41,995 nucleotides of DNA, from contig JANMJF010000603.1 in the NCBI GenBank assembly GCA_031371245.1, positions 1 through 41,995 of the forward strand, given 5' to 3'. The DNA comes from Pseudomonadota bacterium. GTDB taxonomy: Bacteria; Pseudomonadota; Gammaproteobacteria; Ga0077536. Below, piece after piece: positions 15,059-19,539 of this stretch; position 1 is the stretch's first letter, and every line of letters begins with the position of its first letter. The notes beneath the pieces were generated by a model, which made no database searches, was not told where the DNA came from, and worked only from the letters and a program-made list of their open reading frames with translations. The translations under genes and the position numbers were made by a program.

Positions 15059-17443
15059 TCAGGCGCTGAGCAGTGACAGCCGTGGCGCTACTGGGGTCGC
15101 CGCCTGCCACTCCTTCAGCCAGGTCTCAAGCGCATCTGCCGCGAGCGGCCGACTGATGTAATAGCCTTGGGCGATGTCGCAACCCCAGGCCGTGAGCATG
15201 GCTTGCGCCTCGGCCCGCTCGACCCCTTCGGCGACGACGGTGAGCCCCATGTTGTGACCGAGATCTATGGTGCTGCGCACGATGGCAGCATCGTCGGCGT
15301 CCTTGTCCATGTTGAGCACAAATGACTTATCTATCTTGAGCTCTGACACCGGTAAACGTTTCAGGTAGGCCAATGACGAATAGCCCGTGCCGAAGTCGTC
15401 GATCGACAAACGCAGGCCTAGGGCGTGCAGACGCTGGAGATTGTCCTGAGCGCGCACCGGATCATCCATGATGGCGCTCTCGGTGACTTCCAACGTCAAG
15501 CCACTGACCGCAATACCGTGGCGCGTGATGCACTGCGCGATATAGGCTGGCAAATCATTGTTCAGAAGATCGCGCGCCGAGACATTGATACATACATCGA
15601 GTTGCATGCCGACACGCCGCCAGCACGCGAGCTGCGCGCAAGCTGCTTCGATGACCCATTGCGTGATATTGCGGATATAGCCAGTCTGCTCAGCGAACGG
15701 AATGAAATCATCGGGTGGCACAAACCCGCGCACTGGATGTCGCCAGCGCACGAGCGCCTTGGCTTGCACGGCACAGCCGCTGGCGAGATCGATTTTAGGT
15801 TGGTAGAGCAGCACCAGTTCGTTGTTTTCGACAGCGCTCCGCAGTTCGCCGAGCAACGACAGTCGCTCCGGGCTCTGTTCATAGCTGGGGTCATACTCGG
15901 CGTAGCCGCTGCGCGTTCGCTTGGCGACGGTCATGCTCAGATCGACCCGACTCATCAGGACAGGAACGTCGTCGCCGTGGTCCGGATAGACGACGATGCC
16001 GACACTGCCGCCGACATCGACCACCTGGTTGCCAACATTCAGGGGGGGTTCCAGTACCTCCATCAGTCGCACGGCCGTGCGTCGCGCAGCGGCGAGATCT
16101 GCATCAGGCAAGAGGATCGCGAATTCGTCGCCACCCAGGCGCGCCAGCGTATCGGACTTGCGTGCCAGCAAGCCCTGTAAGCGCTGGGCAACGGCCTGCA
16201 AGACCAGATCGCCGTATTGATGACCGAGGGTGGTATTGATCAGTTGAAAATTGTCGAGATCAAGCAGCAGAACGCTCACCGCGCCATGGCTGCGTTGCGC
16301 GTGGGCCAGCGCCTGCTGCAGTCGATCATGGAGCAGCGCACGATTCGGCAACTGCGTGAGGCCATCGCGATAGGCGAGATCCATGATAGTGGACTCGCGG
16401 GTGGCGATAGCCTCGCGCATTTGATTGAAGGCCGTGGCCAGCAAGCCCAGCTCGTCACGTGAGGTAATTTCTGCCGATTGCGTGTAATCACCGCTGGCCA
16501 TGGCCTGCGCCACGACGCCAAGCTGGCGAAGCGGGTTGGTAACGCCGCGCGCGATGACGAAACTGCCGAACAGCGCCGCGCTAAGGCCGATCAGGGTCAT
16601 GGTCATGAGATAGTTGCGTAGCTGCGCGGCACCTTGCAGGGCCGATGCCAGTGAGCGCTGCAGAATAGCGACGGCCGCTGTATCGGTGTTGACCGTGAGC
16701 GTCGCGACCGCGGTCATATCGGTCGCATCGCGTAGCGGTTCGGTCGATTGCGAAGTGCGAGCGTCGAGCAATTGTGCGAAGCGGCGACTGGCGGCGGCTT
16801 GGTCTGTGGGCGGCAGCGTGGTGCCGCCCAGTCGCCAGTCGTGCTGGCCCGAACGGGTCAGGAACGACACTTTCAGCCCGGTCAGATCGGCCAGTTCACG
16901 CGCTACCTCGTCTTCAACGACGAAGCCCATTGCCACCCACCCGACTATCGCCGGCGCGCGCACGGCCAGCACGACCACCTGATAGAGCCGACCACCCGTC
17001 ACGGCCAAGCCAGCGGCCTGACCGGATGACTGCGCCTGAGTCAGCAGGGCGCCGTAGGGAAATGCGCCTTTGACATCGAACTCGGGCACCGTGCTGGCGG
17101 TGATGCGGCCGTTCAGATCGGTCATCATGAGGAGGTCGGCCTTGATGCGTCGACCGTGATTTTCGAGTGCCGATCGCAAGGTCGCCGCATCATCCGTTGC
17201 GACCGCCTCGCGGAATGCAAAATCGGCGGCGAGCACCACGGCGGCTTGGCGCAATTGCAGCGATTTATCCTCAAGAATGCGCGCGAAGACACGCTCGCCG
17301 ACCGCCAGCTCGCGCGTGACCTGACGCTCGGCGCTGCTGCTGGTGAAGAAACTGATGCCGGCAATCGCTACGCAGGCAAGTATCAACACCAGGCCGCCAA
17401 AGAAAGCGACGATGCGGCTGCGGATTGAGCGCGGTGCTATCAC
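15059..17443 (-). CDS. membrane sensor diguanylate cyclase/phosphodiesterase (TM, ~240-aa periplasmic domain, TM, HAMP, GGDEF, EAL)
   Basis: TM1 is IVAFFGGLVLILACVAIAGISFF and TM2 is YLMTMTLIGLSAALFGSFVIA. HAMP region (...ASGDYTQSAEITSRDELGLLATAFNQM...). GGDEF domain with I-site (RKSD-x5-GGDEF). EAL domain (QPKIDL..., EVTES..., DDFGTGYSSL..., ELKIDKSF). GTG start lies 6 nt after the upstream stop. Confidence 0.95.
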   Translation of the reverse strand: MIAPRSIRSRIVAFFGGLVLILACVAIAGISFFTSSSAERQVTRELAVGERVFARILEDKSLQLRQAAVVLAADFAFREAVATDDAATLRSALENHGRRIKADLLMMTDLNGRITASTVPEFDVKGAFPYGALLTQAQSSGQAAGLAVTGGRLYQVVVLAVRAPAIVGWVAMGFVVEDEVARELADLTGLKVSFLTRSGQHDWRLGGTTLPPTDQAAASRRFAQLLDARTSQSTEPLRDATDMTAVATLTVNTDTAAVAILQRSLASALQGAAQLRNYLMTMTLIGLSAALFGSFVIARGVTNPLRQLGVVAQAMASGDYTQSAEITSRDELGLLATAFNQMREAIATRESTIMDLAYRDGLTQLPNRALLHDRLQQALAHAQRSHGAVSVLLLDLDNFQLINTTLGHQYGDLVLQAVAQRLQGLLARKSDTLARLGGDEFAILLPDADLAAARRTAVRLMEVLEPPLNVGNQVVDVGGSVGIVVYPDHGDDVPVLMSRVDLSMTVAKRTRSGYAEYDPSYEQSPERLSLLGELRSAVENNELVLLYQPKIDLASGCAVQAKALVRWRHPVRGFVPPDDFIPFAEQTGYIRNITQWVIEAACAQLACWRRVGMQLDVCINVSARDLLNNDLPAYIAQCITRHGIAVSGLTLEVTESAIMDDPVRAQDNLQRLHALGLRLSIDDFGTGYSSLAYLKRLPVSELKIDKSFVLNMDKDADDAAIVRSTIDLGHNMGLTVVAEGVERAEAQAMLTAWGCDIAQGYYISRPLAADALETWLKEWQAATPVAPRLSLLSA

Positions 17444-17449
17444 GAGTGG

Positions 17450-18082
17450 CTATTCGAGCGGTGGTGGCAGAGGCAGATCCTGGCGCAAGGCCACCGTCAG
17501 CGTCTGCGCTGGGGTCGCGGCCTCGACGTGCAGCGTCGCAGGTGGCGTTGCGGTGTCGTCGTCAATCATCTGGTAATGCCAGGATTGGAGTGCATAGTCG
17601 CCGGCCGGCAATGACGTCAGTTGCACCGTACCGGTGGCATCGGTCAGTGCGAAATACGGGGCATCGACGATATAGACATAGGCAATCATGCCATCGTGAA
17701 TATTGCAGCCGAGCACCACCAGCCCCGCTTTATCGAAAGTCACCGGCGCGGCCGTGATGCCGTGATAGAGCTTCAACTGGAATACTTTCGGTGGTGAAAA
17801 AGAATAGACGTGATGTTTGATGTCGTCTTTGTTCGGGAAGCTGACGGTGGTGCCTTTTGCCAGCGCGCTCACGCGCGGCTCGAATTTCTGGTTGATCTGG
17901 TCGATGATTGCGGTGCGCGAGGGCGACGGGGCAACTGTACCGCCAGGACGCGCGAACACCACGGCATCGGCTAGCGGCCGGCCCTGCGTATCGACCACGT
18001 GCACCTCAAGTGCAGCTGTGTTGCCCGCAGCCAGCAGCACGAATGCGAGGGCGGACAGGCCACACCCTGACCAGCACCTCAT
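17450..18082 (-). CDS. periplasmic cupredoxin-like protein (amicyanin-type copper-ligand spacing; family often annotated 'methylamine utilization protein')
   Basis: Signal peptide MRCWSGCGLSALAFVLLAAGNTAA. Candidate type-1 Cu ligands are DIKHHVYSF (His) and GCNIHDGM (C-x2-H-x2-M, the spacing seen in amicyanin). Flanked by Ig-like segments. The start ATG overlaps the upstream stop (ATGA at 18079-18082). Confidence 0.8.
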   Translation of the reverse strand: MRCWSGCGLSALAFVLLAAGNTAALEVHVVDTQGRPLADAVVFARPGGTVAPSPSRTAIIDQINQKFEPRVSALAKGTTVSFPNKDDIKHHVYSFSPPKVFQLKLYHGITAAPVTFDKAGLVVLGCNIHDGMIAYVYIVDAPYFALTDATGTVQLTSLPAGDYALQSWHYQMIDDDTATPPATLHVEAATPAQTLTVALRQDLPLPPPLE

Positions 18083-18534: not shown

Positions 18535-18618
18535 ACGAGTGAGCTTCGACGAGCGCAGGGCGGTGTTGGAGTCGCCACAATATTTGGTATCCATTGGGTG
18601 GTTTCCGTGAGCAGAGCA

Positions 18619-19539
18619 ATGGGAGCGATGGACACGACAAGAAAGCTTATCGGTCGCGGCGCGCACAAGCTTGAATTCACGGCGTGGGTGGTGTTTCTTC
18701 TGGCTGCCATGATACTTGGCACGTGTCCGAGCAACGCTTACGCGGACGGCGGGCGGCTGCTCGCGACCGGCGGCGTTACGCAGTTGGAGGGTGCGGCGGG
18801 CGGCGGCATCGTACCGTGGGCCTTGATTGGCGGCTATGGAACGCGGGATGAAATCGGCGCTACCGGCTTCGCCACGTACGTCGATACGGGGCATTTCGAT
18901 CTGCTGACGGCGGGCGCAACCATCGGCTTCTATGACCGCTTTGAGCTGTCGTTTGCCCGCCAGCGCTTCAACCTCGGTCGCACGGTGCCGGGAGCATCCA
19001 TCGAGCAAGACGTGGTCGGCGCCAAACTCAAGTTATACGGGGACGCGGTGTTCGATCAGGATCGTTGGTGGCCGCAGCTTGCCCTCGGTGTGCAGTACAA
19101 GCGCAATCTCGATTTTGACTTTGTGCCGGCGCTACTCGGCGCCCAGGACCGTGATGGCATCGATATCTATCTTGCCGCGACCAAGCTGTATCTGGCCGGG
19201 CTCTATGGGCGCAACGTGCTGCTCAACGCCACCGTGCGCGCTACGCGCGCCAATCAGTTTGGCCTACTCGGCTTCGGCGGTGATCGCCATGACGGCTATC
19301 AACCACAGTTCGAAGGCAGTGCGGCGGTGTTTCTGACGGATGCACTGGCGCTGGGCGCGGAATTCCGTACACGACCGAACAATCTGCGGAGTTTCAAGGA
19401 GAACGATATCTTTGACTTGTTCGCGAGCTGGCTGCCGAACAAACATCTTGCTGTTACCGTCGCTTACGCGGATCTCGGGCGCATAGCCAACCGTTCGAAT
19501 GACAACGCGTGGTATGTCTCGGCACAAGTCAGCTACTAA
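18619..19539 (+). CDS. DUF3034-like outer-membrane protein
   Basis: Signal peptide ...FTAWVVFLLAAMILGTCPSNAYA. Mature part starts DGGRLLATGGVTQLEGAAGGGIVPWALIGGYGT..., with alternating beta-strand-like segments and a terminal ...WYVSAQVSY (aromatic C-terminus). The family name is from memory of the GG-rich N-terminal motif. Confidence 0.7.
   Translation: MGAMDTTRKLIGRGAHKLEFTAWVVFLLAAMILGTCPSNAYADGGRLLATGGVTQLEGAAGGGIVPWALIGGYGTRDEIGATGFATYVDTGHFDLLTAGATIGFYDRFELSFARQRFNLGRTVPGASIEQDVVGAKLKLYGDAVFDQDRWWPQLALGVQYKRNLDFDFVPALLGAQDRDGIDIYLAATKLYLAGLYGRNVLLNATVRATRANQFGLLGFGGDRHDGYQPQFEGSAAVFLTDALALGAEFRTRPNNLRSFKENDIFDLFASWLPNKHLAVTVAYADLGRIANRSNDNAWYVSAQVSY

Follow-up and report, generated by a model that had tools for sequence, protein, structure and literature searches.

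Nitric oxide (NO) and oxygen control biofilm dispersal through cyclic di-GMP (c-di-GMP), and this control is well established. In Shewanella and Legionella, a small heme protein of the H-NOX type is paired with a c-di-GMP enzyme of the GGDEF-EAL type; the H-NOX and NosP systems are cytoplasmic, as is, to our knowledge, every known heme sensor for the control of biofilms by c-di-GMP. The NO produced by denitrification and the NO derived from a host first appear in the periplasm. We describe here a locus of four genes, at positions 15059 to 19539 of a 41,995-nucleotide stretch of gammaproteobacterial DNA (lineage Ga0077536, assembly GCA_031371245.1, contig JANMJF010000603.1), which is referred to below as the window. 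It codes for a truncated hemoglobin predicted to be exported, a cupredoxin-like protein, a dCache_3-HAMP-GGDEF-EAL sensor and a predicted outer-membrane barrel of the DUF3034 family. We propose that the four genes constitute a conserved signalling module spanning the cell envelope, in which input from the globin and the cupredoxin would change the c-di-GMP turnover of the sensor, and we estimate the probability of this reading at about one half. The gene cluster is well supported; the sensing mechanism is hypothetical. The main features of the locus are the following.

15059 to 17443, minus strand: sensor gene, 794 amino acids, GTG start (open reading frame (ORF) scan and Pfam; an ortholog of the same length and 97.9% identity is called in the metagenomic locus L086).
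17450 to 18082, minus strand: gene of the middle protein, 210 amino acids, predicted to be exported, 'methylamine utilization protein' or MauL-like (ORF scan).
18079 to 18594, minus strand: globin gene, group-1 truncated hemoglobin of the TrHbN-2 type, 171 amino acids from the ATG at 18594 or 151 from the alternative ATG at 18534.
18595 to 18618: divergent intergenic spacer, 24 nucleotides with the preferred starts, 84 if the globin starts at 18534.
18619 to 19539, plus strand: DUF3034 gene, 306 amino acids, alternative start at 18628 (gene call P0241; the frame is open from 18598 to 19539).

Conservation of the neighbourhood had been set beforehand as the key test of the prediction from which this work started, and it holds. 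When one genome per species was scanned, at least 600 matches to the cupredoxin gene were found, in species-level genomes that include Pseudomonas, Burkholderiaceae, Oxalobacteraceae, Methylophilaceae and Cellvibrionales. Linkage was counted in the best 54 of these at least 600 loci, with at least 4.5 kb available on each side. A dCache_3 sensor lies within 4.5 kb of the cupredoxin gene in 52 of the 54 loci, and in 49 it is directly downstream on the same strand; the sensor gene is thus almost always immediately 3' of the cupredoxin gene, often with translational coupling. The globin is present in 33 loci, DUF3034 in 31, and the complete four-gene set in 31, so that the DUF3034-globin pair joins the cupredoxin-sensor pair in over half of the genomes examined. 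In the reverse count, made from the DUF3034 genes of metagenome contigs that extend at least 1.5 kb to either side (n = 35), the globin is adjacent in all 35, the cupredoxin is present in 31 and the dCache_3 sensor in 25.

The four-gene loci fall into three gene orders. DUF3034 is divergent from globin-cupredoxin-sensor in 9 of the 31 (the window type, also found in Methylophilaceae), the four genes are co-directional in 4 (Caballeronia, Burkholderia), and the order is cupredoxin-sensor-DUF3034-globin in the remaining 18 (Pseudomonas, Herbaspirillum, Cellvibrionales). All four genes occur together, with wholly different flanks, in a gammaproteobacterial metagenome-assembled genome, in Paraburkholderia saeva and in Methylovorus glucosotrophus. 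Ectopseudomonas chengduensis and Herbaspirillum huttiense are further carriers of the module. Chance adjacency was rejected on the basis of the three distinct gene orders and the unrelated flanking genes.

Massilia, Telluria and Noviherbaspirillum carry the cupredoxin and the sensor only. No single conserved replacement partner was found in such globin-less loci; Sel1 repeats, other GGDEF-EAL proteins, a methyl-accepting chemotaxis protein and a weak outer-membrane-protein-like ORF were seen instead. Because of the linkage counts and of the loci where one pair stands alone, the module is best described as two closely linked pairs, one of cupredoxin and sensor and the other of DUF3034 and globin, which are joined in most cases but not in all.

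A few divergent arrangements were also noted. Two loci, L146 (4211-7383) and L154 (5818-9413), carry DUF3034 and the globin without a dCache_3 sensor; one of them has a gene for an ECF (extracytoplasmic function) sigma factor and a Lipoprotein_15 gene alongside, and in the other the pair is followed by a distant cupredoxin-like ORF of 313 amino acids and a weak CHASE4-like protein. On the Comamonas aquatica plasmid NZ_CP104280.1 (L169, 5003-8957), a DUF4394 protein precedes a cupredoxin-like gene and a sensor with an EAL domain, and there is no globin or DUF3034 gene in that place.

In the window, the globin, middle-protein and sensor genes follow one another head to tail on the minus strand, and the DUF3034 gene is transcribed divergently on the plus strand. 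The original prediction, made from the sequence alone, had reported an ATGA overlap between the first two genes and a 6-nucleotide gap before the third. Both are found in the sequence: the ATGA at 18079-18082 is common to the globin stop and the middle-protein start, and six nucleotides (17444-17449) separate the TAG stop of the middle protein from the GTG of the sensor. All four gene identities that it proposed are borne out, by Pfam or, for the cupredoxin, by the ligand set and the AlphaFold fold, and the motifs that it quoted are present (the lipobox LSAC, MRLAHGG and H90...C126-N-I-H129-D-G-M132). Its divergent gap of about 85 nucleotides holds, as 84, for the ATGs at 18534 and 18619; it shrinks to 24 with the globin start at 18594, which is the more plausible one because a charged n-region (RSSKLTR) is gained and the same start is called in the 98%-identical relative L086. 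A sigma-70 scan found no promoter-like site, the divergent spacer included, and terminator-like sites are no more frequent than expected by chance.

The sensor consists of a first transmembrane segment, a periplasmic domain of about 240 residues, a second transmembrane segment, and the HAMP, GGDEF and EAL domains. The hydrophobic segments, read from the translation, are at approximately residues 10-33 and 274-297. Pfam gives E-values of 4e-74 for EAL, 5e-43 for GGDEF and 4e-16 for HAMP.

16844 to 17326, minus strand: dCache_3 match, residues 40-200 (Pfam PF14827, E 8e-14, 52.2 bits against a cut-off of 25.7).
16406 to 16558, minus strand: HAMP, residues 296-346 (Pfam).
15911 to 16375, minus strand: GGDEF, residues 357-511 (Pfam); intact GGDEF motif and, five residues upstream of it, an RxxD I-site (RKSD).
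15146 to 15847, minus strand: EAL, residues 533-766 (Pfam); catalytic motifs complete but for the first Glu of EAL.
15758 to 15760, minus strand: codon AAG of Lys562 (motif KAL), Glu in all 67 aligned relatives.

The domains of the cytoplasmic part are those predicted earlier. The periplasmic domain, which had been said to match no nameable family, is a dCache_3 domain according to Pfam. No solved dCache_3 structure was listed in 2016, none was found here by a sequence search of the PDB, and that search with the periplasmic domain of the sensor returned nothing meaningful; nor did a ligand of dCache_3 turn up in the literature searched. An alignment of 68 sequences (the window sensor and 67 relatives) reveals an invariant periplasmic motif, D74-x2-F-x2-A-x4-D-x2-T-x2-S-x-L-x-N-x3-R99, together with invariant P164, F174 and L261. 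The D74...R99 motif is a candidate ligand-binding or partner interface.

Across the family, median identity to the window sensor is highest in the EAL domain (58%), followed by GGDEF (43%) and the periplasmic domain (33%). The EAL catalytic motifs are kept in 67 of the 68 sensors and the GGDEF motif is intact in 41. Among the 67 relatives, GGDEF is degenerate in 23 of 45 globin-linked sensors versus 4 of 22 globin-less ones, although these counts are not phylogenetically independent. Since the EAL motifs are near-invariant and lie in the best-conserved region, while GGDEF is often degenerate, the conserved output of the family is, judged from the alignment, an EAL phosphodiesterase. The GGDEF-EAL enzyme of the original prediction is therefore right as to the two domains, but EAL alone is the conserved catalytic part, and the window copy is altered precisely there (E562K).

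The window sensor is the single exception among the 68. Its other EAL motifs (N, E-x-T-E, DDFGTGYSS, KID, E and Q) are present, and position 562 is Glu (GAG) even in the 97.9%-identical metagenomic ortholog L086, so the G-to-A change is private to the window: it is either a private substitution or a sequencing or assembly error. The first Glu of EAL is a ligand of the catalytic metal, and enzymes that lose it no longer hydrolyse c-di-GMP; receptors of the LapD type have a similar change in this motif. Unless the base is an assembly error, the window sensor is probably unable to hydrolyse c-di-GMP, and its output is more likely to be synthesis or binding than hydrolysis, because the EAL Glu is replaced by Lys while the GGDEF motif and the I-site are intact.

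The GGDEF-EAL region matches DosP with an E-value of 2e-69, and the NCBIfam DosP model is matched below its cut-off. The Thiobacillus EAL protein TBD1265, whose structure is solved (2R6O), was considered as an ortholog of the sensor and rejected: it is an ordinary EAL match (1.5e-60), behind RmcA, MorA and DosP. A PAS/Cache survey gave no indication of an ortholog in P. aeruginosa. The sensor gene is adjoined at 14561-14980 (plus strand) by a gene for a small Cupin_2 protein with an N-terminal hydrophobic signal-like stretch; this gene is also found beside the sensor in the 98%-identical L086 (3691-4128) and was not seen in more distant loci.

The middle protein belongs to a family of more than 5,800 clusters at 90% identity among the matches listed. 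Its members are named 'methylamine utilization protein' by NCBI, a label which we presume to be derived from MauL, and 'plastocyanin' by JGI. No mau or methylamine dehydrogenase genes are found around the module in the window or in loci L001-L005. Four residues constitute a predicted type-1 copper site.

17687 to 17815, minus strand: predicted type-1 copper ligands His90, Cys126, His129 and Met132, with a C-x2-H-x2-M loop (alignments of 121 and 30 members).

These four residues are invariant in 121 family members and likewise in 30 diverse members, as is the surrounding loop G-C-x-I-H-D-x-M in both alignments. The C-x2-H-x2-M spacing is that of amicyanin. An AlphaFold2 model based on the 121-sequence alignment has a pLDDT (predicted local distance difference test) score of 88 and a predicted TM-score (pTM) of 0.83, and its best PDB matches by Foldseek are amicyanin, pseudoazurin, plastocyanin, the cupredoxin domain of NirK and a purple cupredoxin (E about 1e-5, probability 1.00, TM-score normalized to the target 0.55-0.76). 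All of the top 50 are proteins with cupredoxin or cupredoxin-like domains, each with probability 1.00. The same NirK and cupredoxins are weakly recovered by a profile search of PDB sequences. The window protein itself has no Pfam cupredoxin match above threshold, only a sub-threshold CarboxypepD_reg match, and Cupredoxin_1 matches 10 of 30 relatives below or near the threshold (best E 5.5e-6). The protein begins with a signal peptide, and the cupredoxin domain occupies approximately residues 57-139. It appears to be inserted in a second, CarboxypepD_reg-like beta-sandwich, since CarboxypepD_reg and Ig-like models are matched on both sides of it, by the N-terminal strands (residues 23-46) and by the last third of the protein (143-197). 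The middle protein is thus, according to its alignments and model, a cupredoxin, predicted to be exported, with a complete predicted type-1 copper site. The amicyanin-type spacing noticed earlier is accounted for by the invariant ligands in the 121 members and by the fold; copper binding is a prediction.

The globin is recognized by the Pfam model Bac_globin (E 7e-15, 55.7 bits against a cut-off of 21) and by solved TrHbN proteins of the PDB (E 1e-17 to 1e-14). The closest of these is the TrHbN-2 of Shewanella benthica, SbHbN (E 1e-17, 115 residues ungapped), and M. tuberculosis HbN is also among the best. Helix numbering was transferred from the published SbHbN (PMC11904497) and cross-checked by MAFFT, in an alignment to which M. 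tuberculosis HbN was added.

18262 to 18264, minus strand: proximal heme ligand His F8 (His91), from alignments; kept in 51 of 51 linked globins.
18295 to 18318, minus strand: Cys73-x6-Cys80, end of the E helix to the EF loop, candidate periplasmic disulfide; invariant in 51 of 51 linked globins.
18490 to 18492, minus strand: lipobox cysteine (L-S-A-C); Ala at +2 predicts a lipoprotein sorted to the outer membrane.

The window globin has Ile at B10, His at B13, Phe at CD1, Leu at E7, His at E10, Ile at E11 and His at F8; in the 151-residue numbering, Ile43 is B10, Phe56 is CD1, Leu64 is E7, Ile68 is E11 and His91 is F8. The hand alignment of the original prediction, which had placed Ile at both B10 and E11, kept the proximal His and concluded that the distal pocket is apolar, agrees in all three respects with the ungapped HMMER alignments to solved TrHbNs and with the MAFFT alignment; E7 adds a third apolar residue. 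The hydrogen-bond network of Tyr B10 and Gln E11 that characterizes TrHbN-1 (the M. tuberculosis HbN type) is not present in the window globin. Among 51 distinct globins encoded beside the module, His F8 is found in 51, Phe CD1 in 50, and apolar residues at E7 and E11 in 51. B10 is apolar in 44 and Tyr in seven (Caballeronia, Trinickia). Lys occupies E10 in 28 of the 51; His is found there in the window globin and its nearest relative alone. The TrHbN-2 consensus has hydrophobic residues at B10, E7, E11 and G8, and such a pocket is predicted to confer low O2 affinity, suited to O2 transport or storage rather than to enzymatic activity (PMC11904497). By its sequence, the globin is a group-1 truncated hemoglobin of the TrHbN-2 type, with heme binding predicted, and its apolar pocket corresponds to the known consensus rather than being peculiar to the window gene.

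The N-terminus of the globin, RSSKLTR-MLLVTAVLVGALSAC, shows a charged n-region, next a hydrophobic core and then the lipobox. An N-terminal extension is present in every linked globin inspected. A hydrophobic signal-like stretch precedes the domain in 116 of 119 distinct linked globins, and a lipobox lies near the domain start in 54; those without a lipobox look like carriers of signals of the signal-peptidase-I type. Export of the globin is thus predicted, as it was at the outset, and the prediction extends to the linked family. A periplasmic location is to be expected from the conserved export signals and the invariant cysteine pair.

The divergent gene product matches the DUF3034 model over its full length (PF11231, E 1e-102, 343 bits), in a family of more than 3,900 clusters, and its C-terminus, ...QVSY, is aromatic. 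A PDB sequence search gave nothing meaningful. The AlphaFold2 model (72 sequences, pLDDT 77) consists of a signal helix, a Gly-rich segment and 12 beta-strands, and its Foldseek matches are barrels of 12 to 14 strands: NanC, FapF, Omp33, KdgM, OmpG and autotransporter barrels. On the basis of the 12-strand model and these matches, DUF3034 is predicted to be a small 12-strand outer-membrane barrel, for which the roles of channel, dock and translocator are all possible. The Gly-rich segment ahead of the barrel (consensus GGRLLATGGVTQIEGAAGGGLVPWALIAGYGT; window 18745-18843, plus strand, residues 39-71 from the ATG at 18628) is the most conserved part of the protein. It is poorly placed by AlphaFold (pLDDT 33-39), and may be a plug or a docking peptide.

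These features can be assembled into a relay that crosses the envelope. The lipid anchor of the globin, DUF3034 or both would keep the globin at the outer membrane, and the globin heme would bind a diatomic ligand (NO or O2) or change its redox state. That state would reach the copper centre through electron transfer or binding. The cupredoxin-like protein would be a periplasmic co-sensor docked on the dCache_3 domain, in the manner of LuxP on LuxQ or of YfiR on YfiN, and the sensor would then alter c-di-GMP turnover, chiefly by EAL phosphodiesterase activity in the family as a whole. We advance this extracytoplasmic heme-copper relay, with a tethered hemoglobin sensing NO, O2 or redox state and a docked cupredoxin switching a c-di-GMP phosphodiesterase, only tentatively, as a doubtful special case of the signalling module. 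Several observations weigh against the module and its relay. About 40% of cupredoxin-sensor loci (e.g. Massilia, Noviherbaspirillum) lack the globin and DUF3034, which hence are not essential to the sensor. Conversely, the DUF3034-globin pair occurs without any dCache_3 sensor in L146 and L106 and must therefore have a separate function. A diatomic gas does not require a channel in the outer membrane, and a model of gas sensing alone thus gives no account of DUF3034. The potentials of type-1 copper sites usually exceed those of globin hemes, which makes the reduction of heme by copper thermodynamically awkward. Finally, Sec-type signals mean that heme b would have to be picked up in the periplasm, after export; cytochrome b562 is a precedent for this.

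Some of the same observations fit an enzymatic or electron-transfer system, in which the hemoglobin would detoxify periplasmic NO or peroxide, or reduce O2, with the cupredoxin as its redox partner and the c-di-GMP protein only co-regulated or acting as an indirect monitor. The sensor-less loci L146 and L106 would be expected in this case, and the ligand set of the cupredoxin is that of an electron carrier. E10 is Lys in 28 of the 51 linked globins and His in the window, and a residue at E10 may, according to the SbHbN paper (PMC11904497), coordinate the heme iron and form a hexacoordinate complex that facilitates electron transfer. A role as O2 reductases has been proposed for the periplasmic TrHb domains that are fused to multiheme cytochromes in cable bacteria (PMC11976967). 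However, the cupredoxin gene is tied far more closely to the sensor (52/54) than to the globin (33/54), no conserved reductase, cytochrome or other electron-donor gene was found in the neighbourhoods inspected, and the apolar TrHbN-2 pocket is predicted to serve O2 transport or storage, not catalysis (PMC11904497). We consider such a system unlikely.

The strength of the cupredoxin-sensor linkage could instead point to copper as the signal, with the cupredoxin-like protein reporting periplasmic copper (apo versus holo) to dCache_3 and the globin and barrel as accessories: this pair is the near-universal core of the module and its His/Cys/His/Met site is complete and invariant. Type-1 sites, however, bind copper very tightly for electron transfer, whereas known copper sensors use more labile Met/His or Cys sites. 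With no cop or cus genes conserved nearby in the loci inspected, and the frequent recruitment of a hemoglobin left unexplained, we regard copper sensing as quite improbable. The constant association of DUF3034 with the globin (35/35) raises the further idea that the barrel is a translocation pore, similar to FapF or to autotransporters, which would move the globin to the surface or outside as a hemophore-like binder of heme or gas. The 12-strand secretion channel FapF and autotransporter barrels are among the top Foldseek matches, and the conserved Gly-rich N-terminal segment, not confidently modelled, could be a plug; but the diffusion porins NanC and KdgM match equally well, and many linked globins are lipoproteins whose +2 residues predict ordinary sorting to the outer membrane's inner leaflet. 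Linkage to a sensor with a periplasmic domain and to a periplasmic cupredoxin also points to the periplasm as the site of action, and export of the globin through DUF3034 is in our view very improbable.

The TrHbN-2, cupredoxin ('MauL-like'), dCache_3, GGDEF-EAL and DUF3034 families are already known by name. In the literature that we found there is no description of their combination, of an exported hemoglobin paired with a barrel of the outer membrane, or of a cupredoxin reserved for a signalling receptor. Searches on DUF3034, dCache_3, 'methylamine utilization protein', MauL, exported TrHb and cupredoxin with c-di-GMP returned no description of the module, in agreement with the initial statement that no characterized example was known; the nearest item is the report on the TrHb-multiheme fusions of cable bacteria (PMC11976967). 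Four poorly understood families, TrHbN-2, 'methylamine utilization protein', DUF3034 and dCache_3, would obtain their first function from the signalling module. If the relay operates as proposed, it would provide the first function for DUF3034 and for the dCache_3 domain, and the first signalling role for a cupredoxin and for an exported hemoglobin. A periplasmic heme-copper sensing unit would be a new and testable input route to c-di-GMP. A further question posed by the module is how a Sec-exported globin comes to be loaded with heme b.

Other genes of the window were noted in passing. An 879-residue ORF at 21545-24184 (plus strand) contains an inner-membrane domain similar to HupE/UreJ Ni/Co permeases (residues 30-195, E 6e-46), the Plug domain of a TonB-dependent receptor (residues 241-348) and, at the C-terminal end, a further long region; this is either an unusual fusion of parts from the inner and the outer membrane or a pair of genes read through in frame. 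A second c-di-GMP gene, at 24230-26476 (minus strand), about 5 kb from the module, codes for a protein of 748 amino acids with three PAS domains and a GGDEF domain. At 2320-4917 (plus strand), an 865-residue protein unrelated to the module combines a C-terminal domain similar to the N,N-dimethylformamidase beta-subunit (E 2.5e-92) with Laminin_G_3.

Among the closest counterparts of the module are the H-NOX and NosP systems, which share with it a separate gene for a small heme protein beside a GGDEF-EAL gene and a proposed gating of c-di-GMP turnover by gas. They are cytoplasmic and have the H-NOX or NosP fold, whereas the heme protein is here a truncated hemoglobin with an export signal, the input domain is a periplasmic dCache_3, and a copper protein and an outer-membrane barrel are added. 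No H-NOX or sensor-globin domain was detected by Pfam in the module proteins, where Bac_globin alone is found, in a separate exported protein; the resemblance is functional only. The globin-coupled sensors DosC/DosP and BpeGReg likewise use a heme protein to control c-di-GMP synthesis or hydrolysis, but in these the heme domain, a sensor globin or a PAS, is cytoplasmic and forms a fusion with the enzyme, in contrast to the separate, exported 2-on-2 TrHbN of the module. YfiBNR (TpbB) is likewise spread over three compartments, with one component in the outer membrane, an accessory protein in the periplasm and, in the inner membrane, a HAMP-GGDEF enzyme whose periplasmic domain is PAS/Cache-like. 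Its accessory proteins have no homology to those of the module: YfiR carries no cofactor, and YfiB is a lipoprotein of the OmpA-like kind. The system contains neither heme nor copper, and YfiN lacks an EAL domain.

Individual components also have known relatives. SbHbN (PDB 8UGZ, 7TT9 and 8TLS) has the same apolar B10/E7/E11 pocket, a His at B13 and a Cys equivalent to Cys73; it differs by Tyr at CD1 and by the absence of the second Cys of C-x6-C. The crystallized SbHbN chain has 116 residues and no N-terminal extension, and the paper mentions neither signal peptide nor periplasm nor export (PMC11904497). Amicyanin, pseudoazurin and the MauL-type cupredoxins share with the middle protein the predicted fold and the amicyanin-spaced His...Cys-x2-His-x2-Met loop. 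The module cupredoxin, unlike the amicyanin and MauL types, has no mau or methylamine dehydrogenase neighbours, lies within an additional Ig-like/CarboxypepD_reg sandwich, and has a signalling protein, not a dehydrogenase, as its partner. LuxP-LuxQ and TorT-TorS provide the parallel of a periplasmic partner co-encoded with a sensor domain of the double Cache type, on which it is presumed to dock; their partners are solute-binding proteins with small ligands and their outputs are kinases, whereas here the partner is a metalloprotein and the output a c-di-GMP enzyme. Because the fold and compartment of the heme protein differ, the accessory is a metalloprotein and the accessory components are not homologous, the module resembles these systems functionally but is a member of none of them.

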